64,000 nucleotides of DNA from Candidatus Saccharimonadales bacterium (GTDB taxonomy: Bacteria; Patescibacteriota; Saccharimonadia; Saccharimonadales; UBA10212): positions 695,114 through 759,113 of the forward strand of contig JBEKOJ010000001.1 in assembly GCA_049521895.1 (NCBI GenBank), read 5' to 3'. A program made the translations under genes and the position numbers. Positions within the stretch are counted from its first letter, which is position 1. Each line of letters begins with the position of its first letter. The notes beneath the pieces are model-generated. The model had not been told where the DNA came from. It was given only the letters and a program-made list of their open reading frames with translations, and did no database searches. Shown here one piece after another: positions 44,047 to 64,000 of this stretch.

Positions 44047-44078
<32 letters not shown>

Positions 44079-44379: not shown

Positions 44380-44600
44380 TCGTGGACAGTGTCTGATGGG
44401 TAGTTTAACTGGGGCGGTTGCCTCCTAAAGAGTAGCGGAGGCGTTCAAAGGTTGGCTAGATACGGATGGAAATCGTATTGGTAGTGTATACGCACAAGCC
44501 AGCTTGACTGCGAGGCATACAAGCCGAGCAGGCACGAAAGTGGGAGTAAATGACCCGCTGATCGCACCTTTTGGTGCATGAGTGTGGTATTGACAGCGAA

Positions 44601-44633
<33 letters not shown>

Positions 44634-44769
44634 TATAGCGCCCAATAGTTCACATAGACGGCGCTGTTTGGCACCTCGATGTCGGCTCATCTCATCCTGG
44701 AGGGGGAGCACCTTCCAAGGGTCGGGCTGTTCGCCCGTTAAAGAGGTACGTGAGCTGGGTTTAGAACGT

Positions 44770-45531: not shown

Positions 45532-46093
45532 CGTGAGACAGTTCGGATTATATCCGCTGTGGACGATAGGAAATTTGCGAGGAGTTGCCTCTAGTACGAG
45601 AGGACCGAGGCGAACGCACCGCTGGTGTATGGGTTGTTCTACCAAGGGCATTGCCCAGTAGCTATAGTGCGGAATGGATAAGCGCTGAAAGCATATTAAG
45701 CGCGAAGCCAACCTCTAGATTAGATTTCCCCATGATCCCCCAGAAAGACTATCTGGTTGATAGGCGCAAGGTGGAAGTACAGTAATGTATGGAGCCGAAG
45801 CGTACTAATAGGGACATTGACTTTTTACACTATGAGACAAACCTGTGGTTTTTCTCATCGAGCCTGACGGAGTTAATCCGTCTTTCGCTCGAGGAGCGAA
45901 ACCAACTCTGCTCTTTTCCTTCGGGGGAAGGCAGGGAAAGCAGGTTAGTCTTATAGGGATAAGTGCAACTTGACTAGCTTTTGGTAATCAGCAATAATGA
46001 CTGTGGTCATTTGGCAGATTACGTCGTTTGCTTTACAACACATCCGTGCCAATCTTATGGTTGCCGAAGAAGCTCCCCATCGAGGGTCGCTTC

Positions 46094-46207
46094 TTCGGTG
46101 CCCATGGCGCTAGGGAAACACCTGTTCCCATCCCGAACACAGAAGTTAAGCCTAGCTGCGGTTACAATACTTGGGTTTTAGCCCTGGGAAAATAGCACGG
46201 TGCCGAA
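46094..46207 (+). rRNA. rrf: 5S ribosomal RNA
   Basis: CCCATCCCGAACACAGAAGTTAAGC core. Helix I is TTCGGTGCC/GGTGCCGAA. Confidence 0.85.
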
Positions 46208-46213
46208 ATATAT

Positions 46214-46842: not shown

Positions 46843-49800
46843 GTGGCGCGCCAAAAAAGTATAATTTGTCTCTCTTGTGGTCAAAGGTTCAGAGGACGCT
46901 CTGATGCTAAGGCCTGCTCACCCCGGTGTCTTAAACGCTTGCAGCGCGCCGCTAAAGCCACGGCCCGTGAAGCCAAACTCGCCAAGGAGCTAGGCTCTTC
47001 CAAGAATAAAATCTGTCAATCTTGCGGCAAGGTATTTGTCGGCCGGCGGTCTAAAACCTGTTCAGATCGCTGTCGTAGACGTCTGCAGCGGGCTGAAGAC
47101 CTGCTAGCCCGGGAAACAGGCAAGGCAAAGAGTTCAGGCAAGCGCGCCATCGCTTCGGTTGAAAAAAACCTGCAAGAACTAGAGAAAGATATAGCTTCGG
47201 CTGTTGAACCCGAGTTCGCCACCGAAGAGGGCTTTGTAGGCGATGAAACTGCTACCCAACAGGGTGTTCCGGAGACTGTTCCGGTGCGATTGGTCAGCCC
47301 GCAGCCGGCCCAAACGGTCATTAATCCGGCAGCAGCCAACAGTTTAGAGCCCCAGCCCCAACTATCACAACCTGACGCTAGCTTGGAGGGCCAGCCGCAA
47401 AACGCACCGGCAGCAGATACAAGCGATGCTTTAAGTGAAACATTCCTAACAAATACAGATGCGGCCCAAACTCCAAGCGAACCAGACCACTACGAAAGTC
47501 CACTCAGAAGGCTCCTTAGGCCCAAACTGGTTACTTACGGTGTTCTTAGTATTTTCCTGGTCATTGGCATGGCAACAGCGCTATTTGTCTATTCCCGCAG
47601 CCAAAAAACCCAAGTTACTTCTGGGTCAAACCTGAGCTTGTCGCTAAACAGCTCGACCATCAATACTACCGGCGACAGCCTGCATATAAACTTCAATACG
47701 GTAATTGACAGGGGCAAAAGCTTGACGGCTTCCGGGCCAGTCGTTTTACAAAATGACGTCAATTCTACAGCTGCTTTCAAGATCCAAAATGCCGCTGGCA
47801 CATCCAACCTGCTTATCGCCGACACTACCAATAACCGTATCGGCATCGGCAAAGCCCCAACCCTGGGTATCCTGGATGTCAATGGTGCTATCTACCAAAA
47901 CGGCAACCGGGTCTGTGACACCTCTGGCAACTGCATCAGTACAGCCGGCCGCGGTGGTGCCATAAGCGGCTCCGGCTTGTCTGGTACCATAGCCCTGTTT
48001 ACCGGCTCCGGTTCAAGCATCGGTAACTCCGACTTAAGCCAGTCCGGCTCTACGGTTACGGCAACCGGCAACCTTAACATCACCGGCCAGCTCTGGGTCG
48101 GCGGCAGCCAGATCAGCTCCGCCAACCTGTTTAATGACGCCAATCTGGCTAAGCTCAACGGCAACCAGACATTTACCGGTATCAACACCTTTACAGGTAG
48201 CGTACTGCTGCAGAGTGCCAACGGAGTAGGTCTGCTATCTGTTGATAGCCAGAATAGCCTGGTGGAATTGGGGCAGGCTAATGCCCAAACTGGTGCTTTA
48301 GTGTTTTATGGCTCGGCTAACGGTAACAGCATTACCCTGGCTGGGCTGAATGGGCCAACTTCTAATCAGAACATCTTCTTGCCGGATAGCTCAGGTACAA
48401 TCTGTTTGACGAGCGGTAACTGCAGCGGCAGCGGTGGTTACGGCGACGTTTTGCAGGGCGGAAACTCATTTGCCACGACAATGCTGCTGGGGACAAACGA
48501 TAACTTCGGCTTTAATCTGGAAACCAACGGCAATGTCGCCCAAAGTATCGCCAACAGCGGTAGCGTATTGTTCAAGGCTGTCAACGACAGCAGCAGTAAC
48601 TTCCAGGTTCAGACAGCCAATGGCAAAAACCTCCTTAACCTAAATGGTCTCAGCGGACAGTTGACAATAGGTAGCCCGGGCGCGACTGGTGCTACCAGTA
48701 TCGTATTCTCTGGCACCAGCGTTATCAATACTGTTACGTTGGTGGCACCAGCTGGTCCTACTAGTAACCAAACCATCACACTGCCAGACGCGTCAGGTAT
48801 AGTCTGTTTGACTGACGGTAACTGTGTCGGCTTGGGCGGTTATGGTGATATAAATCAGGGTGGTAACAGCTTTAGCACTAATATTTTAATTGGTACCAAC
48901 GATAATTTTGGCTTTAATATTGAGACCGACTCCCATACGGTGGCCAGCTTATCTAACACCGGCGCGGCTACGTTTAAAAACTATACAGATTCTACAAACG
49001 CCTTCCAGATCCAGAATGCCGCCGGTACCAGCAACTTGCTTGTGGCCGATAGCCAAGATACCAGAATTGGTCTTGGCACTAATGCGCCAACGGCTTCTTT
49101 GACTATCAAAGATAATTTTTCCAGCACATCTTTGACCGCTAGCCTAACAGTCTCCGGCAATGAGATAACCGATGCCACCCGCACCGCCAACACCCAAGGC
49201 GATGGCTTTACTCCTCCAGATAGCAGCTATGGCATATGGGAAGGGACCACTAACTTGGTAGTCAATGGTGGTTTTGAGACTAATGTTAATAATTGGGGCG
49301 GCGGCACCGTAACAAATAGCCGTGATACTTCAACTGCCAAATTCGGGTCATCCAGTCTTAAGGCGGTGACCAATAATACTAATGCGGGTACTTGGGGCGG
49401 TGGCTCAAGTACTACGAACGGTACTCCGAACCAAATCCCAGTAACAGTTGGCAATACCTACACCGCCAGCGCATGGATTAAGGCATCAAGCGGTGTAAAT
49501 GCGAACCTTGATATTGAATGGACAAATTCCTCTGGAGCTTCATTCGGCACTATTATTCAAGCATTTACGACGACAGGAAGTTGGCAGCGTGTGACTTTGA
49601 CAGGAACTGCTCCCAGCAATGCTGTCTCAGCAGACATCAACATCAATTCAACCAATTGGGGTGGCGTAGGCCAGGCATTTTGGTTAGACGGTGTGCAGTT
49701 TGAGCAAAAAGCCTATGCCACGCCTTATGTAGAAACCAGCAACGGCTCGACCGCCAGCCGCAGCGGTGCATATATAGGGGCTCCATCCAGTCTTGTAAGC

Positions 49801-52800
49801 GAAGCGCAAGGTTGGGTTGCTGTTAGGGCAAGACTAGGCACGTTAGATACCTCTACATCCCACGATCTGTTCGGATGGGCAGCTAACAGTAGTGTTAATA
49901 GAATTTCAGTTGCCCCAAACAGCTCAACTAGTTGGCAGGGCTTCTTCAGTCGTAATGGTACACCCACGTTCATAAGTGCTACGGATAGTAGCCATTTTAT
50001 TGGCGATATAGTTACAGTTGTACTTAGCTGGACGAATAGTCAGGTCGGCTTGTCTGTCAATGGTTCCAGTTTTTCGACCAGCACCCGCAATGGCACAGTT
50101 GGTGGAGCCAGTTTGCCTTCAACGTTTGGTATAGGTAATATCAATCTAAATTTAGGAAACGATGTGTCCGACGATGACATTATGTGGTTTGCCTCCGGTA
50201 CAGGCACTCTTTCCAATAGTGATGCTTCTACTCTGAACGCTTATGGCAACAACGACCCGACTACAACCAGTTTGTCCAGCTCTTTGCCGTCGGCTATACC
50301 AACAATGGCGTGGGCTGCTAATACGTCTAGTTATCAATATCAAACTGGAATCTACAACCCTGTAGCGCTGCAAGTGCAGGATGCCAGCGGCAACAATTTG
50401 CTGACTGTCAACGCCAACTCTTCGGCCAGCAGTTTATTGGCGCTTGGTGCCAATACCACCACGGCTAGCGGCGGTATTACCTTTGGCACCGACACTTATC
50501 TCTACCGCTCCGGCACAGGTGCTTTGACTCTTCAGGGCGCCGGCAGTAACTCTACTTTGCAAGCTGGAGCTGCTTCGGGCTATAGCATGCCTGGCAGCAA
50601 TCTAATCTTGGCGGGCGGACAGGGTACCGGTTCCGGTAACGGCGGTAACATCAACTTACAGATTGCCCAAGCGGCTGTTCCTAACACCCCTAACGAGAGC
50701 TTTATCACTGGCGCCAATGCCCCAGATAGCGTTGCTGTCGACAGCACTTACGTCTACTGGTCTAACAATGGCAACAACACCATCGGCCGCGCCAACCTGG
50801 ATGGCAGTGGCGTTAACCAAAGTTTTATCACCACTACCACCCCAGATGGCTTATCTGTGGATAGCAGTCATATCTATTGGGAGAATAGTACTAACACCAT
50901 CGGCCGCGCCAACCTGGATGGCAGCGGCGTGAACGATAGCTTTATCACCACAAGCAATGCTCCCCGGGGCACAGCCGTCGACAGTGCTCATATTTACTGG
51001 ACTAACTCTGCTACTAACACCATCGGCCGCGCCAACCTGGATGGCAGTGGCGCAAATAATAGTTTCATTACCACGGGCAACGCTCCAGTTAAAGTCGCCG
51101 TTGATAGCACCCATATTTACTGGACTAATAAGTTGGATAACACCATCGGCCGCGCCACCTTGGACGGCTCCAATGTCAATAATAGCTTCATTACTGGGGC
51201 CAACACGCCTCGGGGCATCGCTGTCAACAGTACCTATATTTACTGGGCCAACAACGGTAACGGCAGCATCGGCCGCGCCAACCTGGATGGCAGTGGCGTT
51301 AACCAAAGCTTCACTACCGGCACTAGTGGCCCAGACGGTATGACTTTAGATAGCGCCAATGTTTATTGGGCTAATTATAATGGCGGCAGTGGGACTACCA
51401 TCGGCCGGCTTAACTTTGGTAACGCTGTTAACAGTTTGTCCACAGTGGCTAGTCTGTCGGGCGTCAACGGAGCGGCCACCTTCCAAAATGCCGCCGACTC
51501 AACTAACGCTTTTCAGATCCAGAACGCTGCCGGTACATCCAACCTGCTTGTGGCCGATACTGCGGACTCTAGAATTGGCATAGGCACAGCCACCCCTACA
51601 GCTACACTATCTGTTAATGGTTCTGGCTTAATCCAACAAGCTAGCTCTGCCGGCACAACTCTAACTACTTCCGGCAATGAAATAACTGACGCTACCAGGA
51701 CCACCAACACCCAAGGCGATGGCAGAACCCCGCCAGATAGCAGTTACGGCATATGGGAAGGCACCACCAATCTAATTACTAATGGTGGGTTTGAAAGTAA
51801 TAAGACTGGCTGGACCGCCAGTGGCTCTACCGCCACTCAGGTTACTAGCCAGCATAAGTTTGGCTCAGGCTCTTTGCAAGTTGTCACCAATGGCGCCCTC
51901 AGTGGAGAAGGTGCTTTACCATCTTATCCAGGCATTAATGTCACAGCTGGAAATACATATACTTTTTCTGGTTGGGTTTATGGCACGAGTGGTTCGGTAA
52001 TGATGATTGATTATACGTTTATTAACGGGGTTAATCAGGGTCAACATAACCAGACATCGGCAGTAACACTTAACGGAACCTGGCAAAGACTAACCTTAAC
52101 CGATACAGCTCCTGCTGGCACCACATCTATGACACCGTTTATAGTGACTGCTGGCGTAGAAGCTATCACTTTCTATATTGACGGGGTCCAAATGGAGCAA
52201 AAAGCTATTGCTACACCCTATGTAGAAACTAATGGCGCTACCGCTAGTCGCACCATTGCTAGCGTCCAGGCCCCTAGCTCTTTACTGAATGTGACTCAAG
52301 GATGGGTTGCTATTCGCCTACGGTTGGGTATTCCGCAAAGTGTCGCCGGCACCAGCGCAGACAACTTCCCAGAATTCTTTACATGGGGCACGAGCAACGG
52401 CAACTACTACTATCTAGCTCCAACTTCAACTGGTGTTGATTTTGCCCGCAAAAATGGTTCAACCAAACAGACTGTAAGTGGTAACGTGACTTGGTCGGTT
52501 GGCGACTATATGACGGTGGTTGCTGCGTGGACAGCGACGCAAACTGGAATAAGCGTCAACGGCAACAATTTTGTAATTAATAACAACACCAGTATACCGA
52601 CTATCAGTGCTAGTACATTCTACATTGGCTCCTCTGGGGACACCAACTTCTTCGGTAATCCAAGCAACTCCGACAATCTCTGGTTCGCCGCCGGCACAGG
52701 TACCCTGACCAATACTGATGCTTCTATTATCAACAACTTTGGTAACACCGATCCCAATCCAATATCTTTTAACGGTACAGCTAACGCAACCATGGTTTGG

Positions 52801-55800
52801 CAGGCTAACACCTCTACTTACACTAATGTTAACAGCCAACCAATAGTCTTTCAGGTCCAAAACTCAGCCAATAGTAACTTGCTGAGTATCGATGCTAGTG
52901 CCTCGCAACTTTTGGCTAACACCACTACTGTGTTTAGAAACAGTACTAACTCACCTACCGCTTTCCAAGTACAGAATGCCGCCGGCACTACACTTTTGGG
53001 TGTTGATACTACAAACGGCTTAGTTAACCTGGGCACCCCAGGTTCTAGCGGCGCTAATGGCCAGATTGTCTTTAATTCTACCAATGCTGCCGGCTATGGC
53101 GTAACTATCGCTGCAACTAGCGCGCTGAGCCAGTCTTACACTTTAAAACTCCCAACTGCCGCGCCGGTGCAAAGCCAGTGTTTGGTAGTTGACTCGGTAG
53201 ACGCCAGTCAACTTAACTTTGGTTCGTGTGCCACCGGTAGTGGCGGGTCAGTTGATCTGCAAGGCGCTTACAATAACTCCACCACTCCAGCTACTATCAC
53301 CACCACTTCACCAACCAAGACTCTAATCTTTAAAGCTGGCACCAACAACGACTCCACAACCTTATTCCAGATCCAGAATGCCGCTGGCACATCCAATCTG
53401 TTAGTAGCTGATACCACTGACACTAGACTAGGTGTTGGTACAGCTGCGCCGCTGACTACTTTACAGGTGAATGGCACGGGCTTAATTCAAGGTTCTTCCT
53501 CTACTAGCAATAACTTAACAGTCTCCGGTAATGAGATAACTGATGCGTCCAGAACTCAAAACCAACAAGGCGACGGCCGCACCCCACCAGACAGCAGTTA
53601 TGGCATATGGGAAGGGACGACTAACCTGGTTACCAATGGTGGGTTTGAGAGTAATACGAATGGGTGGGTAGCGTACGGTAGCGGAACAACATTTAGCCGT
53701 GATACGAACGTATCTAAATTCGGGCCGGCATCTCTAAAAGTGGTAACTGATGGAACCATCGCCCAGCAAGGAGTTTACGTTGCGGCAAACTTCTCTCCCA
53801 GCTTGACCTACACTGCCTCCATGTGGGTAAAAGGCCCCTCAGGCGCAAACTTCGTCTTTTGGTCGGCCAATAACTTCCCCAATATTTATGTTAACGGAAC
53901 GTTTACTGGTTCTTGGCAGAGAGTGTCACTGACAGGTACGACACCTTCATATTCTTCATCGGCGTGGCTTATCTTTCAGACTAATTCCGCAGAGGCAATC
54001 ACTTTTTGGGTTGATGGTGCTCAGTTTGAGCAGAAATCAATTGCTACACCTTATGTAGAGACTAATGGCGCCACGGCCAGCCGCAGTAACTCAGCTGTAA
54101 CAGCACCGTCTAGTTTGATTAACTCCACCCAGGGGTGGGCCAGTGTTAGGATGCGAATGAGCTTTGCTAGCACAACGATACCGAACTCATTCGTGATTCC
54201 TTTCACGTGGGACGACGGAACCGGCAATAACGCTATACAGCTAAGGTTCAATGGCTCATGGACCACATTGCGTTGTACTGGCGGATCTTGCGGTAGTGCT
54301 GCAGTTGTTGCTGACACATTCAGTGCCGGTGATTTCCGAACTGTAATACTAAAATGGGACGCCTCTACCATCGGAATCTCAATTAACGGTGGTTCGTTTA
54401 CTACTGCAAGTAATGGGAACATTCCGTCTGGACTTGGTGCCACCTTTAGGCTTGGCTCTGGAAATGGATTTAACCAAGTTGACTCTGACTTTATGTGGAC
54501 CGCCACCGGCACCGGCACGCTGACTAACACTGATGCTACTAACATCAACAACTTTGGTAATACTGATCCATATATCACTAATTTCTCCCAAGCTGCCTAT
54601 CCTACTATGGTCTGGCATGCCAATAACGCCACCTATCAAACAGGTAGCAGCTTGGCCCTACAGGTTCAAAATAGCAATGGTAATAATCTCTTCAACATCA
54701 ACTCGGCTAATACCAGCTTAATAGCTAACACCAACACCAATACCTTCCAAAATACCATTGACTCTACTAATGCCTTCCAGATCCAGAATGCCGCTGGCAC
54801 ATCCAATCTGTTAGTAGCTGATACCACTGACACTAGACTAGGTGTTGGTACAGCTGCGCCGCTGACTACTTTACAGGTGAATGGCACGGGCTTAATTCAA
54901 GGTTCTTCCTCTACTAGCAATAACTTAACAGTCTCCGGTAATGAGATAACTGATGCGTCCAGAACTCAAAACCAACAAGGCGACGGCCGCACCCCACCAG
55001 ACAGCAGTTATGGCATATGGGAAGGGACGACTAACCTGGTTACCAATGGTGGGTTTGAGAGTAATACAACGGGGTGGGGTGCAAGGAACTCTGCAACTTA
55101 TGCAAGGATAACGGCTTTTTCGAAGTTTGGTGCCGCCTCCTTGCAAGTAAACGGAACAGGAAGTACTACTACGCAAGGCATACAATCACCAGAGGTTGCT
55201 ATTTCCCCAAGCATTACTTACACGGCTTCAACTTGGGTCTATTCTCTTTCGGGTACCTCGGTTCAAATATATATAAACTGGTATGACGGCTCGAACGCAT
55301 ACATCTCGACGAGTAGTGGTACGGCAACTGGAACGGCTACTGGGTGGACGAGAGTTTCTGGAACCGCCCCATCACCATCTAATGCTAGCTTTGCAAACAT
55401 TCAAGTCTTCTTCCCAAGCGGGCAACCGATCCAAACATTTTATATCGATGGGGCCCAGATTGAGCAAAAAGCTATCGCCACACCTTACGTAGAAACCAAC
55501 GGTACCACGGCCAGCCGCAGCGCCGCGCGCGTCCAAGCCCCCGTTGCCAACACCATAAATGCCACCCAGGGCTGGATAGCGATGCGATTCCGACCAGCAT
55601 GGTCGGCTAGTACAGAGCCCGCATCCCAAGACAATGCAAGGCTGTTTTTATGGTGTGGCTCAACCTGCAATGACCGACTGGATCTATACTATAATCTCTC
55701 TAATCAAACCTTTGACCTAGGACGTTACGCGGGTGGTTCCGGAGGCGGATCGGGTTCAAATACACAGTCATTTGCGGCTGGCAGTCCTGTAACAGTCGTT

Positions 55801-58800
55801 GCAGCCTGGGATTCAGGGCACCTCTATGTGTCAGTAAATGGTTCCAGCTTTATATCTAGCACCAATACTAATATTCCTACAATTTCAACGTCGACATTTG
55901 ATCTAGGTTCATATGGCAATGGCAGCCATTATCTCGATTCCGACATCCTTTGGACAGCCACCGGCACAGGTACCCTGACTAACACAGATGCTACTAACAT
56001 CAATAACTTTGGCAATACTGATCCATATATCACTAACTTCTCCCAGGCCAGCTACCCGACCATGGTTTGGCAGGCTAACAACGCTACCTACCAAACTGGC
56101 ACCAGCCTGGCTCTGCAGGTCCAGAACAGCACAGGAGCTAACCTCTTCAACATTAACTCGGCTAACACCAGCTTAATAGCTAACACCAACACCAATACCT
56201 TCCAAAATACCATTGACTCTACTAATGCCTTCCAGATTCAGAATGCTGCTGGGACATCCAACCTATTTGTAGCTGACACAACCGATTCACGTATAGGCAT
56301 AGGCACAGCTACACCGGTAGCTACAGTCAACGTTGTAGGTTCTACATTGCTACAGCAAGGAGCAGCTACATCTCTAACCGTCTCTGGTAACGAGATAACT
56401 GATGTTACCCGTACCACCAACACCCAAGGCGATGGCCGAACCCCACCAGACAGCAGCTATGGTATCTGGGAAGGGACGACCAACCTGCTAACTAACGGCG
56501 GCTTTGAGAGCGGGACGACGCCGTGGAACCCACTGGGGTCAGGCGCGTCTCAAACTCGTGTTACTACACAAGCAAAATTTGGTTCAGCCTCTCTTGCCGT
56601 AACTACTCCAGGATCGAGTGCCACTGAAGGCACAGCTATATCAGTCATAACGCTTAGTAGTAGTACTACCTATACGATGAGTGCTTGGGTGCTTTGGGAA
56701 AACGGAGTAGCCGGCAGATTAATCTTCTTTGACGCTACTGGAGCCAGCAACTACGCGACAACCAACTTCACTGGTACGGGCACTTGGCAGCGAGTGACAG
56801 TTACTGCAACAACGTTGTCTACAAGCACGCAGTTCCAGTTAAGGCTAGAGAGAAATGTAGCAACAGCAGGCACTTTCTATGTAGACGGTGCCCAAATTGA
56901 GCAAAAAGCCATTGCTACGCCTTATGTAGAGACCAGCAACGGCTCCACTGCCAGCCGCAATGCTCCCAGCGTTCGAGCTCCGGCATCCTTAATTAATCAA
57001 AATCAATTCTGGGTAGCAGCCAGGGTGAGGATGGGTGTCTCAAGCGCCAACTGGCCCCATAACTTAACACTCTTTAATTGGGGCGATGCTTCACCGGGCT
57101 ATTTCCACTTGGCCTTCAATAGTAGTGGAGCTGAAATGCAAAGCCACACCTCTGGATATAGTGCTGCTGCCGCCAGCTTTAGTTGGAATGCTGGCGACTT
57201 AATAACTATAATTGGCTATCGAACTTCTAGTGGTAGTCTGGGACTATCTGTCAATGGAGGTAGCTTCTCTACAGGCACGGATATTCAAGCGGTTTCCGGG
57301 TTGCCAAGTACCTTTACACTAGGTACAGACTTTGTTCCTTATAATTTGGACTCCGACATCCTTTGGTCTGCCACCGGCATAGGCACCCTAACTAATACCG
57401 ATGCCACTAACCTCAATGCCTTTGGCAATACCGATCCGAACTTCAACCAGCTGCCGCCAGCCGGTGATCCAACTATGCTCTGGAAGGCTAATAATTCTAA
57501 CTACATAGGTCCTTCCAATGCAGATATAGTCTTCCAGGCCAACAATAGTGCAGGCACTAGCTTACTCTCCCTTGATGCCACCAACGCTAAACTAACCGTA
57601 TCTACCGCCGGCCTCTTCCAAAACACCACTAACTCTGCTAATGCCTTTACAGTTAACACCTCTACTGGTAGCCAGCTATTCAACGTTAATACCTCTAACC
57701 TTCAAGTAACCACTAATAATCTCCAATCCTCCGGAGCGGTCAACCTAAGTAACACCCAAGGCACGGTATCCTTAGCTGGAAGCCTGCAAAACTCCTCCCA
57801 AACCCTAACTACCTCTGGCAATGAGATAACTGATGCAGAACGTGCTATAGGTGCATCCTCTACCAACACAGCTGGCCAATCTTACGACGGCAAAACCAAT
57901 GACTCCTCCTACGGCATATGGGAAGGCACGACGAACCTGGTTACTAATGGAGGGTTTGAGAACAATACGACAGGGTGGTCGAATAACGACGGTGTAGCCA
58001 CTTTGGCGCAGGATGCAACTAAATCGAAATTTGGCAGTAAATCTCTCAAGGTTACTCCTGTCGCTGGGCCTACATCAGGGGCAAGAATAAATCCTGCCTT
58101 ATCCACTACTTCTGGCAGCACCTATACTGCCTCCGGTTGGGTATGGGTTACAGCAGGCCAAGCCGTTAAGTTATCGGTTTATCGAGCAGATTTTTCAACA
58201 CTGCTAATTAACACAAATATTACGGGCAATAGTGGATGGCAGAGAGTTACGGCTACCTGGACCGCGCCAGCTACAGAGCTTGCCTATGTAGAGTTCTTGT
58301 CGGCCGATTCAAGCGGCACAGCGTTTTATCTAGATGGCGCGCAGATTGAGCAAAAAGCCTACGCAACGCCTTACGTAGAAACCAATGGCACTACCGCCAC
58401 GCGCAGCGCAGGCCGAGTTCAAGGCCCGGTAACTGCTTTAAGTGCTACCCAGGGCTGGGTGGCGATGCGAGTTAGGATGGGCTTTGCTTCTAGCGTTTCA
58501 TTCAGTGTCCCGCGTGAATTCTTCTCTTATGACGACGGGACACTGAATAATAGGTTCCAGCTTAGGTGGAATCCAGGCACTGTCTCGTGGGTTGCAGACA
58601 CAGTCGTCGGAGGCGTTGCACAGACTCAAATACTCATTGCCGACAGTTTCAATGCGGGAGATGTGCGTACAATAATAATCAGTTGGACTTCCAGCCAGAC
58701 ATTTTTGTCGATTGCCGGCTCTAACTTTACGGGAGCAGCTACCTCCAAGCCGACGGGACTAAACGATCTGGATATAGGTTCATCTACGGGTTCAGGACTT

Positions 58801-61800
58801 ACCGGTCGTGAAGTAGACTCCGACATCCTCTGGGCTGCCACCGGCACCGGCACGCTGAGTAACTCTGACGCTACGACTTTGAATAATCTTGGCAACACTG
58901 ACCCGACCTTAGCTAAGCTCTACAGCTTAAATGGTGGAGCAGGGCAACCAACCTTTGTCTGGAACGCTAATACGGCTAACTACCAAGATATAACAAGCTC
59001 TAACGGCCAAGCCCTAATCTTTGCCGCTAATACCTCTGGGGCCACTACTGGCAACCTAATAGACCTGCAATCCGGCCTGTACCCCTCCAGCAAGTTTTCT
59101 GTAGACGTAAATGGTAACCTAACTGATGTCGGCACCGCCCTCTTCCAGAACACTACTGACTCTACCGCCGCCTTCCAGATCCAAAATGCTGTCGGCACAT
59201 CAAATCTGTTTGTAGCTGATACGGCTGACACTAGACTAGGAGTAGGAACGGCTACACCGGTAGCTACAGTCAACGTTGTAGGTTCTACATTACTACAGCA
59301 AAGGGCAACTACATCTCTAACAGTCTCAGGTAACGAGATAACTGATGCAACTCGTACAACGAATACCCAAGGCGACGGCCGCACCCCACCGGACAGTAGC
59401 TACGGCATCTGGGAAGGCACCACCAACCTAATGATACATGGCGGCATGGAAGGTGGCCTTGGCCAATGGGTGCAAAGTGGCAGTGGCACGGTTACCTTAT
59501 CTAACGACACAAGCACTGCAAAGTTTGGCAGTAAATCCCTTAAAGCTTCCAGCGATGGATCTGTTACAAACGGTGTTAAATGGGATAATGGCGCGGGTGG
59601 AGTCGGCGTGTCCCCAAGCACTACCTATACTTTCTCGGCCTGGGTAAAGGGAACTGGTTCAGCGTTTATACAAATATCTGAATATGCTAGTGGTGTATCC
59701 TTTGTCACTAACGATGGTTCCAGCAACTTTACTCTCACCTCTAGCTGGCAGCGTATAACACTGACTTTCACCACTTCGTCAACAACGGTAGCTGCTTTGC
59801 CTCGCATACTTTTGAACACAGGCTCTGCATGGACTTTGTGGGTTGATGGTGTGCAGCTTGAGCAAAAAGCAATCGCTACACCTTATGTAGAAACCAATGG
59901 CTCTACAGCTACCCGCAACGCCGCCCGCGTGCAGGGCCCAGCAACGGCAATAAACTCAACCCAGAGCTGGTTTGCCGCCCGTATCCGTGTGGGTTGGTCA
60001 ACAACATCTACCAACAGTACCTTCTCCCGTGTGTTTGACTGGGGGGACAGTGATGGAGTTAATGAAATAAGGCTGGCCTGGGTAGATGCTTCTAAGATGT
60101 GGTTGATGCAAAGATATGCCGGCGGCTCTGTGACCAATGCAACAAGCGCTACTCAAACATTCAACGCGGGGGATGTATTAACTATTATTGGATCATGGAC
60201 TAGTGGCCAGGTTGCAATTAGTATTAATGGATCTACATTTACATCAGCTGTTAATACCTATATTCCTTCTCTTGTTGCTTCTCAGTTCAATATCGGCAGT
60301 GATATCAACGGTTACCAACAGGGTGATTCTGATTTCCTCTGGACTGCCACCGGCACCGGCACTCTGACTAACACTGATGCAGCTAACCTTAATGCCTTCG
60401 GTAACACTGACCCGAACTTCAACCAGCTGCCAGCTACTGGCACTCCAACCATGCTCTGGAAAGCTAATAACTCTAACTACATTACATCCTCTAATGCCGA
60501 CATAGTCCTACAAGCTAACAATAACGCTGGCTCTAGCTTACTCTCCCTTGATGCCACCAACTCTAAGCTAACAGTAAATACACAGGGCCTTTTCCAAAAC
60601 ACTACCAATAGCAGTAATGCCTTTACAGTCAACACCTCTACTGGTACCCAGCTATTCAACGTAAATACTGCTAACCTCCAAGTAAGCACTAATAACCTCC
60701 AATCCTCCGGAGCCGTTAACCTAACCAACTCTCAAGGCACTGTCTCCCTAGCTGGAAGTCTGCAAAACAGCAGCCAAACTCTAACTACAAGTGGTAATGA
60801 GATAACTGATGCCGAACGTGCTATAGGCGCATCCTCTACCAACACAGCCGGCCAATCCTATGATGGTAAAACTAGTGATAGCTCCTACGGCATATGGGAA
60901 GGGACGACTAATTTAGTTACTAATGGAGGGTTTGAGAGTAATACAACGGGGTGGACTATAGTTGCTGGAGACGAAACCCTGGTACGTACAACTACAACTT
61001 CTAAGTTTGGTTCCGGTAGTGCATCAGTAACAACTACAGCCAATGCTACACGAGGGCTAATTATTGCCAGTGCCTCACGTCCTGCGGTGTCGGCGTCTAC
61101 AGCCTATACCTATTCTGCCTGGGTTAATGCCCCTGCAGGTGCTCCTATGACACTAAGATTACGAGAGTATATTGGCGCAACACCGCAGGGCGATACCGAC
61201 CAAACTTTTATCGGTACAGGTACTTGGCAAAGAGTTAGTGTTACTCGGACGATGACTTCAACTGGTGGGTCCACTGCTAGTTTGTGGGTATTCCAAACGG
61301 ACGCTACTGTTAGAACCTTCTATGTCGACGGCGCCCAATTGGAGCAAAAAGCGATTGCTACACCTTATGTAGAAACCAATGGTGTTACCGCCAGCCGCAG
61401 CGCCGCCCGTATACAAGCCCCGGCCAGTAATCTGAACGCCACTCAAGGCTGGGCTGCTGTCCGCGTCCGGTTTGGTTGGGCGTCAACTACCTCTCTTGGC
61501 TTCTTGCGATTTTTGTCCTGGGGTAATGACGGCAACAACGCCTTAGAAATTACTAATCAATTGAATCCGGGCGGTGGCATTGCCGTGGTTAGGCGCACTG
61601 CTGGGTCTGGAGCTAACGCGAACGCGTCATTGACATGGAACGCTGGTGATACTGCCACTATCGTTGCAACCTGGACAGCTTCGACATTGAATGTGAGTGT
61701 AAACGGCGGCGCATTTATTACGGTTGCCAATAACACGATTCCTTCTATTACATCCACCACTTTTGATATAGGTGATAGATTTGATTCAACGAGTCAGGCT

Positions 61801-64000
61801 GACTCCGACATCCTCTGGGCTGCCACCGGCACCGGCACGCTGAGTAACTCTGACGCTACGACTTTGAATAATCTTGGCAACACTGACCCGACCTTAGCTA
61901 AGCTCTACAGCTTAAATGGTGGAGCAGGGCAACCAACCTTTGTCTGGAACGCTAATACGGCTAACTACCAAGATATAACAAGCTCTAACGGCCAAGCCCT
62001 AATCTTTGCCGCTAATACCTCTGGGGCCACTACTGGCAACCTAATAGACCTGCAATCCGGCCTGTACCCCTCCAGCAAGTTTTCTGTAGACGTAAATGGT
62101 AACCTAACTGATGTCGGCACCGCCCTCTTCCAGAACACTACTGACTCTACCGCCGCCTTCCAGATCCAAAATGCTGCCGGCACATCTAACCTCTTTGTAG
62201 CCGATACCACAGACTCTAGAATAGGTATAGGTACAGCTACGCCTACGGCCACCCTTTCGGTAAATGGCACCGGCTTAATCCAAGCCAGCTCTGCCAGTAA
62301 CCCACAACTGACTGTCTCTGGTAACGAGATAACTGACGCTACCAGGACTACCAATACCCAAGGCGATGGCAGAACCCCGCCAGACTCCAGCGAAGGCATA
62401 TGGGAAGGCACGACCAACCTGATTACTAATGGCGGATTTGAGAATAATACTACGGGGTGGGGCGCATGGTCAGCCAGTACTGCTGCTAGGACAACTTCCC
62501 GGGCTAAATTCGGATCTGCTTCACTTGCTTTATCTGGTTCGACTAATCCATACATAGGTGGGTCCACAGGATTTGCGCCGACTACAGGAACCCAGTACAC
62601 AGCTTCGCTCTGGTTTAAACCGGTAGAAACGGCCACTTACTCACTCAGGGCTAGCGACGCTACAACCTTGTGGAATGCCTATGGTCCACAGATACAGGCT
62701 CAAGCGGGAGTATGGACACGCTACACTGTTACCTTCACTCCGGGCAACTCCAACAATCTTGTTCTAGGTATGTTCTACGAAGGAGGAGGTAGTGGTTACT
62801 TCACCGGTGAAACAGTCTATTACGACGGCGTACAGGTTGAGCAAAAAGCCATCGCTACACCTTATGTAGAAACCAGCAACGGTTCAACCGCCAGCCGCAG
62901 TGATGCGGCTGCATCGGCTCCAGCAAGCCTAATAAATAATATCCAGAGTTGGATGTCCGTCCGTGCCAGAATTGATGCTCCGACTGGTTCTGGCCAGCCC
63001 ACCCACAGTTTTTTCTCTTGGAATGTTAATAGCAACACGACCCTCCATCTCTACTATAATTCTTCTAGTGGCACGCAGCTGCGTGCAGGACGACAAGTTA
63101 CTGGTTCTGAAAACACAGTTGCCATCAATTACAGTGGTAATGTAGGTGATTTAGTCACTGTAACATTTGCCTGGACTGCCACTAACCTTTACTTGAGCCT
63201 TAATGGTGGCGCTTTTGTATCAGTTAGTAATACAGCGACAAGTGGTACAGGCTATCCTTCGACATTCAATATCGGTTCAGCAGAAAGTGGTACAGGCGTT
63301 GGAGCACTTGATGGCGACATTTTGTGGTTTGCTACTGGCACCGGCATCCTGACTAATACTGATGCCAGCAATATCTACGGCTTTGGCAATGCTGACCCGG
63401 GCTTCTCCAGCTTCCCGGGTTACTCCACGCCCACTATGGTCTGGCAGGCTAATAACTCCAGCTACATCAATAACTCTAACAACTCATCCATAACCTTTAA
63501 TGTCCAGAACTCCAGTGGCAATAGCTTGCTTGACGTTGACTCTAACTTGATGTCGGTCAACCTACAGGCTGCTACTAACAGTACTGCAGCCTTAGTCCTG
63601 GGCAACGACGCCAACCTCTACCGTAGTGCCGCTAATACCCTAAAAACCGATAGCTCACTGGTAGTAGCTGGCGCTAACGCTAAGTTCCAAAATACCACTG
63701 ACTCTACAAACGCTTTCCAGATCCAGAACGCCGCCGGTACATCAAACCTATTAGTGGCCGATACTGCCGATAGCCGTATAGGCATAGGCACAGCCAGTGC
63801 CACCTCTACCTTAACTGTCAGCGGCAGCGGTCTGATTCAGCAGAGTGCGGCAACTAACTCACTGACTGTAAGCGGCAATGAAATAACTGATGCCAGCCGT
63901 ACAACAAACACCCAAGGTGATGGCCGCACCCCGCCCGACAGTAGCTATGGGATATGGGAATCTACCACCAACTTGGTTACTAATGGTGGTATGGAGAATA
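46843..64000 (+). CDS. giant modular surface protein, 5' partial (at least 5,719 codons, continues beyond the window)
   Basis: Frame 1 was read codon by codon from 46843 to 64000 with no TAA/TAG/TGA. TAA at 46831-33 closes the frame upstream, and GTG 46843 is the first start. Missing from the track because no stop lies in the window. Confidence 0.9.
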   Translation, partial: MARQKSIICLSCGQRFRGRSDAKACSPRCLKRLQRAAKATAREAKLAKELGSSKNKICQSCGKVFVGRRSKTCSDRCRRRLQRAEDLLARETGKAKSSGKRAIASVEKNLQELEKDIASAVEPEFATEEGFVGDETATQQGVPETVPVRLVSPQPAQTVINPAAANSLEPQPQLSQPDASLEGQPQNAPAADTSDALSETFLTNTDAAQTPSEPDHYESPLRRLLRPKLVTYGVLSIFLVIGMATALFVYSRSQKTQVTSGSNLSLSLNSSTINTTGDSLHINFNTVIDRGKSLTASGPVVLQNDVNSTAAFKIQNAAGTSNLLIADTTNNRIGIGKAPTLGILDVNGAIYQNGNRVCDTSGNCISTAGRGGAISGSGLSGTIALFTGSGSSIGNSDLSQSGSTVTATGNLNITGQLWVGGSQISSANLFNDANLAKLNGNQTFTGINTFTGSVLLQSANGVGLLSVDSQNSLVELGQANAQTGALVFYGSANGNSITLAGLNGPTSNQNIFLPDSSGTICLTSGNCSGSGGYGDVLQGGNSFATTMLLGTNDNFGFNLETNGNVAQSIANSGSVLFKAVNDSSSNFQVQTANGKNLLNLNGLSGQLTIGSPGATGATSIVFSGTSVINTVTLVAPAGPTSNQTITLPDASGIVCLTDGNCVGLGGYGDINQGGNSFSTNILIGTNDNFGFNIETDSHTVASLSNTGAATFKNYTDSTNAFQIQNAAGTSNLLVADSQDTRIGLGTNAPTASLTIKDNFSSTSLTASLTVSGNEITDATRTANTQGDGFTPPDSSYGIWEGTTNLVVNGGFETNVNNWGGGTVTNSRDTSTAKFGSSSLKAVTNNTNAGTWGGGSSTTNGTPNQIPVTVGNTYTASAWIKASSGVNANLDIEWTNSSGASFGTIIQAFTTTGSWQRVTLTGTAPSNAVSADININSTNWGGVGQAFWLDGVQFEQKAYATPYVETSNGSTASRSGAYIGAPSSLVSEAQGWVAVRARLGTLDTSTSHDLFGWAANSSVNRISVAPNSSTSWQGFFSRNGTPTFISATDSSHFIGDIVTVVLSWTNSQVGLSVNGSSFSTSTRNGTVGGASLPSTFGIGNINLNLGNDVSDDDIMWFASGTGTLSNSDASTLNAYGNNDPTTTSLSSSLPSAIPTMAWAANTSSYQYQTGIYNPVALQVQDASGNNLLTVNANSSASSLLALGANTTTASGGITFGTDTYLYRSGTGALTLQGAGSNSTLQAGAASGYSMPGSNLILAGGQGTGSGNGGNINLQIAQAAVPNTPNESFITGANAPDSVAVDSTYVYWSNNGNNTIGRANLDGSGVNQSFITTTTPDGLSVDSSHIYWENSTNTIGRANLDGSGVNDSFITTSNAPRGTAVDSAHIYWTNSATNTIGRANLDGSGANNSFITTGNAPVKVAVDSTHIYWTNKLDNTIGRATLDGSNVNNSFITGANTPRGIAVNSTYIYWANNGNGSIGRANLDGSGVNQSFTTGTSGPDGMTLDSANVYWANYNGGSGTTIGRLNFGNAVNSLSTVASLSGVNGAATFQNAADSTNAFQIQNAAGTSNLLVADTADSRIGIGTATPTATLSVNGSGLIQQASSAGTTLTTSGNEITDATRTTNTQGDGRTPPDSSYGIWEGTTNLITNGGFESNKTGWTASGSTATQVTSQHKFGSGSLQVVTNGALSGEGALPSYPGINVTAGNTYTFSGWVYGTSGSVMMIDYTFINGVNQGQHNQTSAVTLNGTWQRLTLTDTAPAGTTSMTPFIVTAGVEAITFYIDGVQMEQKAIATPYVETNGATASRTIASVQAPSSLLNVTQGWVAIRLRLGIPQSVAGTSADNFPEFFTWGTSNGNYYYLAPTSTGVDFARKNGSTKQTVSGNVTWSVGDYMTVVAAWTATQTGISVNGNNFVINNNTSIPTISASTFYIGSSGDTNFFGNPSNSDNLWFAAGTGTLTNTDASIINNFGNTDPNPISFNGTANATMVWQANTSTYTNVNSQPIVFQVQNSANSNLLSIDASASQLLANTTTVFRNSTNSPTAFQVQNAAGTTLLGVDTTNGLVNLGTPGSSGANGQIVFNSTNAAGYGVTIAATSALSQSYTLKLPTAAPVQSQCLVVDSVDASQLNFGSCATGSGGSVDLQGAYNNSTTPATITTTSPTKTLIFKAGTNNDSTTLFQIQNAAGTSNLLVADTTDTRLGVGTAAPLTTLQVNGTGLIQGSSSTSNNLTVSGNEITDASRTQNQQGDGRTPPDSSYGIWEGTTNLVTNGGFESNTNGWVAYGSGTTFSRDTNVSKFGPASLKVVTDGTIAQQGVYVAANFSPSLTYTASMWVKGPSGANFVFWSANNFPNIYVNGTFTGSWQRVSLTGTTPSYSSSAWLIFQTNSAEAITFWVDGAQFEQKSIATPYVETNGATASRSNSAVTAPSSLINSTQGWASVRMRMSFASTTIPNSFVIPFTWDDGTGNNAIQLRFNGSWTTLRCTGGSCGSAAVVADTFSAGDFRTVILKWDASTIGISINGGSFTTASNGNIPSGLGATFRLGSGNGFNQVDSDFMWTATGTGTLTNTDATNINNFGNTDPYITNFSQAAYPTMVWHANNATYQTGSSLALQVQNSNGNNLFNINSANTSLIANTNTNTFQNTIDSTNAFQIQNAAGTSNLLVADTTDTRLGVGTAAPLTTLQVNGTGLIQGSSSTSNNLTVSGNEITDASRTQNQQGDGRTPPDSSYGIWEGTTNLVTNGGFESNTTGWGARNSATYARITAFSKFGAASLQVNGTGSTTTQGIQSPEVAISPSITYTASTWVYSLSGTSVQIYINWYDGSNAYISTSSGTATGTATGWTRVSGTAPSPSNASFANIQVFFPSGQPIQTFYIDGAQIEQKAIATPYVETNGTTASRSAARVQAPVANTINATQGWIAMRFRPAWSASTEPASQDNARLFLWCGSTCNDRLDLYYNLSNQTFDLGRYAGGSGGGSGSNTQSFAAGSPVTVVAAWDSGHLYVSVNGSSFISSTNTNIPTISTSTFDLGSYGNGSHYLDSDILWTATGTGTLTNTDATNINNFGNTDPYITNFSQASYPTMVWQANNATYQTGTSLALQVQNSTGANLFNINSANTSLIANTNTNTFQNTIDSTNAFQIQNAAGTSNLFVADTTDSRIGIGTATPVATVNVVGSTLLQQGAATSLTVSGNEITDVTRTTNTQGDGRTPPDSSYGIWEGTTNLLTNGGFESGTTPWNPLGSGASQTRVTTQAKFGSASLAVTTPGSSATEGTAISVITLSSSTTYTMSAWVLWENGVAGRLIFFDATGASNYATTNFTGTGTWQRVTVTATTLSTSTQFQLRLERNVATAGTFYVDGAQIEQKAIATPYVETSNGSTASRNAPSVRAPASLINQNQFWVAARVRMGVSSANWPHNLTLFNWGDASPGYFHLAFNSSGAEMQSHTSGYSAAAASFSWNAGDLITIIGYRTSSGSLGLSVNGGSFSTGTDIQAVSGLPSTFTLGTDFVPYNLDSDILWSATGIGTLTNTDATNLNAFGNTDPNFNQLPPAGDPTMLWKANNSNYIGPSNADIVFQANNSAGTSLLSLDATNAKLTVSTAGLFQNTTNSANAFTVNTSTGSQLFNVNTSNLQVTTNNLQSSGAVNLSNTQGTVSLAGSLQNSSQTLTTSGNEITDAERAIGASSTNTAGQSYDGKTNDSSYGIWEGTTNLVTNGGFENNTTGWSNNDGVATLAQDATKSKFGSKSLKVTPVAGPTSGARINPALSTTSGSTYTASGWVWVTAGQAVKLSVYRADFSTLLINTNITGNSGWQRVTATWTAPATELAYVEFLSADSSGTAFYLDGAQIEQKAYATPYVETNGTTATRSAGRVQGPVTALSATQGWVAMRVRMGFASSVSFSVPREFFSYDDGTLNNRFQLRWNPGTVSWVADTVVGGVAQTQILIADSFNAGDVRTIIISWTSSQTFLSIAGSNFTGAATSKPTGLNDLDIGSSTGSGLTGREVDSDILWAATGTGTLSNSDATTLNNLGNTDPTLAKLYSLNGGAGQPTFVWNANTANYQDITSSNGQALIFAANTSGATTGNLIDLQSGLYPSSKFSVDVNGNLTDVGTALFQNTTDSTAAFQIQNAVGTSNLFVADTADTRLGVGTATPVATVNVVGSTLLQQRATTSLTVSGNEITDATRTTNTQGDGRTPPDSSYGIWEGTTNLMIHGGMEGGLGQWVQSGSGTVTLSNDTSTAKFGSKSLKASSDGSVTNGVKWDNGAGGVGVSPSTTYTFSAWVKGTGSAFIQISEYASGVSFVTNDGSSNFTLTSSWQRITLTFTTSSTTVAALPRILLNTGSAWTLWVDGVQLEQKAIATPYVETNGSTATRNAARVQGPATAINSTQSWFAARIRVGWSTTSTNSTFSRVFDWGDSDGVNEIRLAWVDASKMWLMQRYAGGSVTNATSATQTFNAGDVLTIIGSWTSGQVAISINGSTFTSAVNTYIPSLVASQFNIGSDINGYQQGDSDFLWTATGTGTLTNTDAANLNAFGNTDPNFNQLPATGTPTMLWKANNSNYITSSNADIVLQANNNAGSSLLSLDATNSKLTVNTQGLFQNTTNSSNAFTVNTSTGTQLFNVNTANLQVSTNNLQSSGAVNLTNSQGTVSLAGSLQNSSQTLTTSGNEITDAERAIGASSTNTAGQSYDGKTSDSSYGIWEGTTNLVTNGGFESNTTGWTIVAGDETLVRTTTTSKFGSGSASVTTTANATRGLIIASASRPAVSASTAYTYSAWVNAPAGAPMTLRLREYIGATPQGDTDQTFIGTGTWQRVSVTRTMTSTGGSTASLWVFQTDATVRTFYVDGAQLEQKAIATPYVETNGVTASRSAARIQAPASNLNATQGWAAVRVRFGWASTTSLGFLRFLSWGNDGNNALEITNQLNPGGGIAVVRRTAGSGANANASLTWNAGDTATIVATWTASTLNVSVNGGAFITVANNTIPSITSTTFDIGDRFDSTSQADSDILWAATGTGTLSNSDATTLNNLGNTDPTLAKLYSLNGGAGQPTFVWNANTANYQDITSSNGQALIFAANTSGATTGNLIDLQSGLYPSSKFSVDVNGNLTDVGTALFQNTTDSTAAFQIQNAAGTSNLFVADTTDSRIGIGTATPTATLSVNGTGLIQASSASNPQLTVSGNEITDATRTTNTQGDGRTPPDSSEGIWEGTTNLITNGGFENNTTGWGAWSASTAARTTSRAKFGSASLALSGSTNPYIGGSTGFAPTTGTQYTASLWFKPVETATYSLRASDATTLWNAYGPQIQAQAGVWTRYTVTFTPGNSNNLVLGMFYEGGGSGYFTGETVYYDGVQVEQKAIATPYVETSNGSTASRSDAAASAPASLINNIQSWMSVRARIDAPTGSGQPTHSFFSWNVNSNTTLHLYYNSSSGTQLRAGRQVTGSENTVAINYSGNVGDLVTVTFAWTATNLYLSLNGGAFVSVSNTATSGTGYPSTFNIGSAESGTGVGALDGDILWFATGTGILTNTDASNIYGFGNADPGFSSFPGYSTPTMVWQANNSSYINNSNNSSITFNVQNSSGNSLLDVDSNLMSVNLQAATNSTAALVLGNDANLYRSAANTLKTDSSLVVAGANAKFQNTTDSTNAFQIQNAAGTSNLLVADTADSRIGIGTASATSTLTVSGSGLIQQSAATNSLTVSGNEITDASRTTNTQGDGRTPPDSSYGIWESTTNLVTNGGMEN
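46867..47073 (+). other. two tandem CxxC-x11/12-CSxxC zinc-ribbon (TRASH/FCS-like) motifs at the giant protein N-terminus
   Basis: CLSCGQRFRGRSDAKACSPRC (46867-46929) and CQSCGKVFVGRRSKTCSDRC (47014-47073). A TM helix LVTYGVLSIFLVIGMATALFVY follows at 47527-47592. Confidence 0.6.
50698..51420 (+). repeat. six 40-41-aa YWTD/NHL-like beta-propeller blades inside the giant ORF
   Basis: Six repeats of FIT..N.P.G.AVDS..IYW.N...NTIGRANLDGSG.N.S. The DNA core ACCATCGGCCGCGCCAACCTGGATGGCAG recurs almost exactly. Confidence 0.65.
53365..53657 (+). repeat. 293-bp exact direct repeat (copy 1) in a giant-ORF linker
   Basis: Identical base for base to 54775-55067 (offset 1,410 bp, in frame). Confidence 0.9.
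54775..55067 (+). repeat. 293-bp exact direct repeat (copy 2)
   Basis: Identical to 53365-53657. Confidence 0.9.
58816..59191 (+). repeat. 376-bp exact direct repeat (copy 1) in a giant-ORF linker
   Basis: Identical base for base to 61801-62176 (offset 2,985 bp, in frame). First mismatch at 59192. Confidence 0.9.
61801..62176 (+). repeat. 376-bp exact direct repeat (copy 2)
   Basis: Identical to 58816-59191. Confidence 0.9.

Follow-up and report, generated by a model that had tools for sequence, protein, structure and literature searches.

What kind of protein is encoded by a reading frame that stays open over 5,722 codons of a bacterial chromosome, and what could the lectin-like modules repeated along it be for? 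The frame lies in a 64,000-nt stretch of DNA from a Candidatus Saccharimonadales bacterium (assembly GCA_049521895.1, contig JBEKOJ010000001.1, positions 695,114 to 759,113 of the forward strand), referred to here as the window. Frame 1 of the plus strand is open from a stop codon at 46831 to the window end, and the giant gene in it (46843..64000, + strand; frame open from 46834) leaves the window with the 5′ three-quarters of its length inside. Its product carries twelve copies of a two-domain head, related in fold and sequence to heads of phage tail proteins and of type IV pilin-like proteins. We propose that the protein is probably a membrane-anchored, multivalent and multi-specific adhesin for glycans of a bacterial host.

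The giant gene and its array of head modules

Two start codons have been called for the giant gene. The Prokaryotic Genome Annotation Pipeline (PGAP) begins at a TTG at 46939, giving 7,609 aa, and another gene caller at a GTG at 46843, giving 7,641 aa; the GTG start takes in one extra zinc ribbon, the first, compared with the PGAP start. An exact-sequence look-up retrieved the product as NCBI MGA3150749.1, a 7,609-aa ‘carbohydrate binding domain-containing protein’ identical to the part encoded in the window, and found it identical to the giant protein on five JGI contigs of 0.2–1 Mb. The GyrB and GH130 proteins encoded in the window were likewise matched exactly to an NCBI metagenome-assembled genome of Candidatus Saccharimonadales, in which they lie on a contig of 776,545 bp. 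A locus with the full-length gene (L011) is 100% identical to the window over 36939–64000. The full protein contains twelve modules, nine of which lie complete in the window together with the first 17 residues of the tenth; an initial annotation of about ten tandem modules thus described the window well and fell short for the array as a whole. Counted from motif to motif, the modules in the window are 839, 618 and then 470–518 residues long. Beyond the window follow modules 10–12, a stalk of ~380 residues and a tip domain, and the C-terminus reads ...LSTCDLRPF.

The array is marked by the string GIWEGTTNL at 49231, 51748, 53602, 55012, 56461, 57913, 59404, 60889 and 62395 and by GIWESTTNL at 63949, at spacings of 2517, 1854, 1410, 1449, 1452, 1491, 1485, 1506 and 1554 nt. 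Chance recurrence was ruled out for a nine-residue string found ten times in one frame. The initial annotation had given these same positions and exactly these spacings, along with four consensus strings for successive parts of the module, all of which reappear in a MAFFT consensus of the nine modules. Its rendering of the motif needs one correction, as the variable residue is the fifth (G or S) and not the sixth.

Fold and family of the head domains

Each predicted head consists of a short N-extension, a jelly roll of the carbohydrate-binding module (CBM) 4/9 type, a second jelly roll of the concanavalin (ConA)/LamG type and a C-terminal helix. In module 1 (49144..50259; all modules are on the + strand), the N-extension is followed by the CBM-type jelly roll at 49231-49716 and the ConA/LamG-type jelly roll at 49717-50259. 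Pfam CBM_4_9 (PF02018, gathering score 25.9 bits) was matched above its gathering score, at 37–55 bits, in six modules: module 2 (51661..52755, followed by a 253-aa stalk; E 8.4e-10), module 4 (54925..56025, the copy that was modelled; E 1.6e-12), module 5 (56374..57438; E 2.8e-11), module 6 (57805..58905; E 1.3e-14), module 8 (60781..61890; E 4.9e-9) and module 9 (62308..63399; E 1.7e-9). Module 1, module 3 (53515..54570) and module 7 (59317..60414) gave no CBM_4_9 match at E≤0.1, and modules 3 and 7 no Pfam match; all three were placed by the MAFFT alignment, in which they align with the remaining modules. Module 10 (63862..64000), cut by the window end, is represented by its start only and was recognized from its GIWE motif and the full-length record.

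An AlphaFold2 model of module 4, including the 32 residues before GIWEG, has two all-beta domains and a folded N-extension (predicted local distance difference test, pLDDT, 93.5; predicted template-modelling score, pTM, 0.89). In Foldseek searches of the PDB, domain 1 matched CBM16 (2zex, 3oea), CBM22 (4xuo) and CBM4-2 (2y64) structures with target template-modelling (TM) scores of 0.64–0.74 and E-values of ~1e-6 to 2e-5, and tandem jelly-roll proteins matched the two-domain pair as a whole. The two domains are modelled as one rigid unit. With Pfam and fold in agreement (TM ~0.7), the assignment of domain 1 as CBM-type, made in the initial annotation as CBM4/9/22, is solid.

Domain 2 had been described as LamG/concanavalin-like, which is right at the level of the fold and not at that of the sequence family. 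Modelled alone from module 4 (pLDDT 91.1), its top 50 fold matches in the PDB are all ConA-like, among them the thrombospondin N-terminal domain (TSPN; 2erf), neurexin LNS, laminin LG4-5 (2jd4; query TM score, TMq, 0.58), pentraxins, galectins, CBM40 and BoNT Hc-N; their E-values of ~5e-6 to 3e-5 and TM scores of 0.45–0.58 support similarity at the level of the superfold only. Laminin_G_3 (PF13385, gathering score 27.6 bits) stays below threshold, with a best score of 20.7 bits and matches at E≤1 in three of the nine modules (E 1.1e-3 in module 4), and a profile search of PDB sequences found no match for domain 2. PF13385 is on record for several head homologues.

Conserved junctions and variable cores

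Three stretches are conserved among the modules: LTVSGNEITD..QGDG..DSSYGIWEGTTNL.NGGFE, DG.Q.EQK.ATPYVETNG.TASR and D.D.LW.A.GTGTL.N.DA. These junction motifs have per-position entropies of 0.2–0.6 bits and 72–90% amino acid identity, with proportions of nonsynonymous (pN) and synonymous (pS) differences of 0.06–0.21 and ~0.6, whereas the cores have entropies of 1.2–2.3 bits, 33–34% amino acid identity, pN of 0.50 and pS of 0.78. Core nucleotide identity is ~42%, and every head core is unique. The contrast between divergent cores and conserved ‘linkers’ drawn in the initial annotation is therefore borne out, and divergence along the module is clearly non-uniform.

Two interpretations attached to that contrast call for correction. 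The conserved stretches had been taken for linkers of a common scaffold. In the model, EQK.ATPYVETNG.TASR at the junction, D.D.LW..GTGTL in the tail and the 29–36 residues upstream of GIWEG all lie within the folded unit at pLDDT 86–98. When 64 homologues from other genomes, phage and pilin proteins included, are aligned with the modules, the conserved residues hardly vary. Because these stretches are folded in the model and kept in other genomes, they belong to the head and are not linkers, and we infer that together they form a putative inter-domain hub. The role of spacer falls instead to the stalks of 116–467 aa between heads. The LTVSGNEITD stretch is taken as the true N-terminus of the head unit, since several homologues start exactly at M..LTVSGNEITD. 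Synonymous sites are nearly saturated in the motifs (pS ~0.6), which indicates that junction conservation acts on the protein, through purifying selection; gene conversion alone was rejected as its cause on the same pS, and was accepted for some of the stalks.

The pattern had also been read as the one expected for an array of binding domains with different specificities. Per-position entropy in the nine window modules correlates with that in the foreign homologues (Spearman 0.83), and the distance of each head from its neighbours (41–50%) is matched by its distance from pilin heads and from those of other giant proteins. Variable cores with conserved junctions thus appear to be a property of the whole family and not evidence of diversification within this array. 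Synonymous sites in the cores are saturated for every module pair (pS 0.70–0.87). Because of this saturation and the equal distance from heads elsewhere, the cores are best seen as ancient paralogues, at a depth at which saturation would leave selection unmeasurable; recent duplication in place followed by fast divergence of the cores was rejected on the same two observations. Core strands and loops are equally variable in entropy, and hypervariability restricted to loops was not seen.

Relatives of the head in phages, pilins and other giant fibres

A profile search against 1.84 billion cluster representatives recovered at least 1,254 proteins at E≤1e-30, and a scan of genome contigs found two related loci only. 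Gene context was checked for few of these relatives, which fall into four kinds.

The first kind comprises stand-alone heads of ~400 aa, one of which (P0008) lies in a phage head-tail cluster. This 419-aa protein (L010 10001-11260) is encoded a few small open reading frames (ORFs) after the phage major capsid gene, and may serve as a capsid decoration or head fibre. Three short ORFs beyond it, a cluster of glycosyltransferase and sugar-modifying genes is inserted among the head-tail genes.

The second kind consists of phage tail proteins. P0058 is a fusion with a Mu Gp48-type baseplate protein, encoded between Baseplate_J and a Collar fibre gene in a cluster with tape-measure, sheath-initiator, Baseplate_J and Collar genes. 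Tsac_2847 of Thermoanaerobacterium phage THSA-485A, two genes after the tape measure, was found by tblastn (E 3e-10), which also matches actinophage minor tail proteins. Among predicted viral structures in BFVD, A0A6J5R5N0, an uncultured Caudovirales protein, superposes on the whole head with TMq 0.82 (rmsd 2.8 Å over 375 columns, 32% identity), and I3VYV5 (Tsac_2847) matches the whole unit with TMq 0.75; tail fibre proteins of the Escherichia coli phages NBEco002, EdH4 and rolling reach whole-unit TMq of 0.63–0.70, and actinophage minor tail proteins are also among the structures that superpose.

In the third kind, found on metagenomic contigs, the head is fused to an N_methyl prepilin domain in proteins of 525–565 aa carrying the JGI name PilA (P0002, P0003, P0013 and P0062 among them). 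The fourth kind are giant fibres of Saccharibacteria (L001, P0078, P0080, P0083). P0078, from a different genome, is complete at 5,659 aa and has nine GIWE-like motifs; the TPYV junction motif comes after six of these. Multi-head arrays are thus not confined to the source genome; literature searches found no paper describing them. The L001 fibre, of more than 2,330 aa and encoded on a Saccharibacteria chromosome (OZ246413.1; L001 189-7181), has the same stalk repeats and only one CBM-ConA head, and its other repeats resemble, by eye, LVIVD-type and Kelch-type beta-propellers. This fibre suggests a common chassis that accepts different binding domains.

Membrane anchor, stalks and propeller

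The N-terminus of the giant protein carries two Cys4 zinc-ribbon repeats, treble-clef-like and presumably cytoplasmic (46867..47076, + strand), with the pattern CxxC..C...C and an RC(L/R)(K/R)RLQR tail. Their cysteines are at residues 9, 12, 25, 29 and 58, 61, 73, 77 (GTG numbering), and the region has a weak Pfam match to DUF2116 (E 0.011). A basic Cys4 ribbon (..C..C...C...C.(K/R)R(L/F)QR) is thus fused twice in this protein and is also fused in P0083; on a Saccharibacteria-type contig (L006), it forms a separate ORF of 67–68 aa that overlaps the start of each of two giant genes (2289-2492 and 20879-21085). The ribbon could act as a partner in the cytoplasm, or serve in regulation or export.

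Hydropathy places a single transmembrane (TM) helix at residues 228–253 (47524..47601, + strand), preceded by RRLLRPK; it is the only 19-residue window with a Kyte-Doolittle mean above 1.6 in 5,719 residues. Because basic residues precede the helix, the positive-inside rule points to an N-in, C-out anchor, with residues 1–227 predicted to be cytoplasmic.

After the TM helix, the chain is 14% Thr, 12% Ser, 11% Gly and 10% Asn. It begins with a proximal stalk of T/S/G/N-rich fibrous repeats (47602..49143, + strand), whose motif F(Q/K)(I/V)QN..G..LL..D recurs through the stalks. The inter-head stalks are moderately conserved (40–54% identity). For the stalks, the proximal region and the tip domain, searches of Pfam, PHROGs and PDB sequences gave no match. 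Within the stalk after module 1 lies a YWTD/LDL-receptor class B beta-propeller (50734..51414, + strand; Ldl_recept_b E 2.3e-13, Vgb_lyase E 4.4e-14) with six ..Y(I/V)YW.N..NTIGRANLDGSG.. repeats, as in a six-bladed propeller.

Self-blastn showed that repeats at the DNA level are confined to segments running from a head tail through the stalk into the next N-extension. Four pairs on the + strand appear recently homogenized: M6/M8 (58816..59444 with 61801-62435; 87% over 641 nt and 96.8% over 440 nt), M5/M7 (57359-57978 with 60335-60954; 83% over 621 nt), M3/M4 (54496-55061 with 55951-56510; 79% over 569 nt) and M2/M3 (53365-53668 with 54775-55078; 99% over 304 nt). The segment 58816..59444 spans the module 6 tail, the stalk and the module 7 N-extension. 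Between modules 6 and 8, pS is 0.27 in tail and stalk versus 0.81 in the cores, and stalks and cores therefore differ in history: either the stalks were converted or duplicated more recently than the cores, or cores may have been swapped between conserved joints. Over 57359-62435, similarity among the stalks returns every two modules, stalk 5 resembling stalk 7 and stalk 6 resembling stalk 8, and the intervening cores are unpaired. Such a period would fit an old duplication of a two-module block with later core replacement, or patterned gene conversion.

Genomic neighbourhood

A 5S rRNA gene directly precedes the giant gene, which starts ~640 nt after it. The rRNA locus upstream is split in the style of Patescibacteria, with 16S, protein-coding genes, a 23S bearing LAGLIDADG insertions, and 5S. 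Spread over 32651-46208 of the window are 16S, tRNA-Ile, two ORFs, tRNA-Ala, a hypothetical gene, a group-1 glycosyltransferase, a GH130 phosphorylase, 23S and 5S. The 23S match (in the 40559-45393 region) covers 4,320 nt against a model of 2,925 nt, which indicates insertions; one of them encodes a LAGLIDADG endonuclease (43316-43804), and a second LAGLIDADG ORF (44917-45393) lies just beyond the annotated 3′ end of the 23S. The window also contains gyrB and gyrA, adjoined by a gene for a 966-aa VirD4/TraG-like coupling ATPase (AAA_22, TraG-D_C; 22343-25243). Type IV secretion systems have been reported in Patescibacteria, and a VirD4/TraG-like ATPase near gyrB/gyrA is consistent with them. 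Immediately 3′ of the stop of the full giant gene are an IS200-type Y1 transposase gene (L011 32931-33551) and a 440-aa ORF.

Comparison with known systems

The closest likeness is to the CBM plus ConA-like double jelly rolls of phage tail fibre, baseplate and minor tail proteins, on which the whole unit superposes as a rigid body; metagenomic phage homologues also have the N-extension motif SGNEITD..GDG..DSS.GIWE.TTN in common with it. The likeness is one of fold and sequence, and the phage heads are likewise putative ligand binders. The phage proteins differ in carrying one head, rarely two, on a virion attachment domain, whereas the giant protein has twelve heads, a chromosomal gene and a membrane anchor. 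Its gene stands on the chromosome after 5S, in the window with gyrB/gyrA, and without a tail or baseplate cluster, in contrast to its homologues P0058 and Tsac_2847, which lie in such clusters.

A second comparison is with modular type IV pilins, in which a recognition module is displayed away from the cell, and many direct head homologues are fused to an N_methyl prepilin domain. PilB of Streptococcus sanguinis is such a pilin with a C-terminal lectin/adhesin module (PMC8179133), and the minor pilin PilX1 of TM7x has a beta-jelly-roll domain (PMC11623550). The giant protein differs from them in having no prepilin motif and so is not a pilin: Pfam found no N_methyl domain in its N-terminal 796 aa, and its N-terminus consists of the zinc ribbons and the TM helix at 228–253.

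The heads resemble CAZy families CBM4, CBM9, CBM16 and CBM22 in their above-threshold Pfam matches, fold (TM ~0.7) and NGGFE..W start motif. The CAZy definition of a CBM requires that it be part of a carbohydrate-active enzyme. The giant protein is not part of one and has no catalytic domain (neither Pfam on the window part nor the precomputed Pfam annotation of all 7,609 residues includes a catalytic, hydrolase or lyase family), and its CBM-type module is always paired with a ConA-like partner and an N-extension.

Surface fibres of great length, built like beads on a string, furnished with ligand-binding domains and proposed to attach to partner cells, are known from the 1.5-MDa Marinomonas ice-binding adhesin (PMC5550230) and the giant membrane proteins of Vampirococcus, a member of the candidate phyla radiation (CPR) (PMC8080830). 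Repeats-in-toxin (RTX) adhesins consist of ~100 near-identical Ig-like extenders with a few ligand-binding domains at the tip and use type I secretion. In the giant protein, by contrast, it is the putative binding head that is repeated, its copies are strongly diverged (33% identity) and the anchor is an N-terminal TM helix; Pfam found no Ig-like extender, RTX or type I secretion domains, and no LPXTG-type motif is visible at the C-terminus.

Possible function and alternative explanations

Cultured Saccharibacteria live as epibionts and need cell-wall glycans and lectin-like minor pilins to bind their hosts (PMC11623550). Epibiotic growth requires several surface adhesins with glycan-binding domains (PMC10633639), and CPR giant membrane proteins have been proposed as host-attachment fibres (PMC8080830). 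We read the giant protein as a host-recognition protein because its head occupies recognition positions in phages and in pilins, and consider an adhesin of this kind the probable answer to the question posed by the locus. Two cytoplasmic zinc ribbons and one TM helix would anchor the chain N-in, C-out; outside the cell, twelve heads, Thr/Ser/Gly/Asn-rich stalks, one YWTD propeller and a separate tip domain would form a beads-on-a-string fibre. The heads would bind envelope glycans of the bacterial host that carries this presumed epibiont. Different binding specificities are plausible for twelve heads that diverged so long ago, which would make attachment multivalent and multi-specific and may set or broaden host range. 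The stalks evolve apart from the head cores, by duplication or gene conversion, and their repeats might permit rearrangement of the array.

Several points weigh against an adhesin. Sequence conservation singles out no sugar-binding site, and equal variability of strands and loops offers no obvious hypervariable pocket. Folds of the CBM and ConA types can, moreover, be protein-binding or structural. Stalks and tip match nothing known, so that we infer the fibre from composition and repeats. Phage fibres are trimers, a state that the putative fibre may or may not share. Some of the same observations would suit a structural component of the envelope or of a fibre (a spacer, sheath or S-layer-like coat) whose heads bind no ligand and drift neutrally on a tolerant beta-sandwich: core divergence is even across strands and loops, modules lie as far from one another as from homologues elsewhere, synonymous saturation precludes a test for selection, and no ligand-site motif is evident. 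We nevertheless think such a coat unlikely, given that the head sits at the baseplate or distal tail of phages and at the C-terminus of pilins, positions of recognition and not of packing, that twelve copies are kept intact in an organism with a ~0.78 Mb contig, and that five independent contigs encode one and the same 7,609-aa product. An array that degrades or remodels polysaccharides, with a catalytic ConA-like domain and a targeting CBM, seems less probable still. GH16, GH7 and polysaccharide-lyase folds do belong to the ConA-like superfold, CBM_4_9 modules in CAZy are usually appended to glycoside hydrolases, and one homologue, on contig L009, lies beside genes with Polysacc_lyase and weak Glyco_hydro_cc matches. 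However, the best-matching folds for domain 2 are lectin and adhesion domains of non-enzymatic kind rather than GH16 or GH7, the Pfam results described above contain no hydrolase or lyase, and no GH16-type ExDxxE was seen among the invariant residues of the nine copies, by eye and without a formal search.

Homologous heads in phage tail proteins, together with documented competition among Saccharibacteria for hosts (PMC11623550), could also point to defence or competition, with heads acting as phage decoys or blocking receptors used by phages or rival epibionts. Nothing points directly to such a role, and occupying a receptor itself needs host binding, so that it would refine the adhesin and not replace it; as a separate explanation we hold it to be highly improbable. 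That the long array is an artefact of assembly, a chimera or the result of repeats being collapsed or expanded, with a much shorter gene in reality, is hardly credible, despite a second form of the product of 2,686–2,718 aa in an ENA assembly (NODE_2013) and in another from JGI (a 197-kb contig). The two have the same junction (L007 18129-19776): they are identical to the window as far as 54971, a point that falls in the module 4 N-extension and within the 99%-identical 304-nt repeat, then read ...KFRNPMVRP* and continue as out-of-frame fibrous-protein sequence with no counterpart in the window or in the full locus L011. The short form represents either a genuine allele, truncated or rearranged, or a mis-join that recurs between assemblies. 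Mis-assembly could not have invented repeats with unique cores (~42% nucleotide and 33% amino acid identity), the frame is open for 22.8 kb, the identical full gene is present on five contigs of 0.2–1 Mb and in the NCBI metagenome-assembled genome, and a different genome has the complete 5,659-aa relative P0078.

Within the adhesin explanation, the heads may represent a receptor-binding repertoire of phage type that decides to which bacteria this epibiont can attach, with the family-wide junctions and the repeated stalks serving as recombination joints through which heads are swapped among giant fibres, type IV pilins and the tails of phages with the same hosts. This is a tentative idea, and one we regard as more doubtful than not; if true, host-recognition cassettes would form a mobile pool shared between viruses and ultrasmall parasitic bacteria.

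The head belongs to a large and uncurated family of two-domain units, for which annotation pipelines offer no name beyond ‘carbohydrate binding domain-containing’. Published work on host recognition by Patescibacteria and Saccharibacteria names no receptor-ligand pair (PMC11623550, PMC10633639). The giant protein offers twelve distinct, well-predicted and separately expressible candidate recognition heads, tied by homology to phage receptor-binding proteins and to heads borne on pilins. As a putative giant modular adhesin, it is a good and directly testable candidate for host recognition in Patescibacteria.

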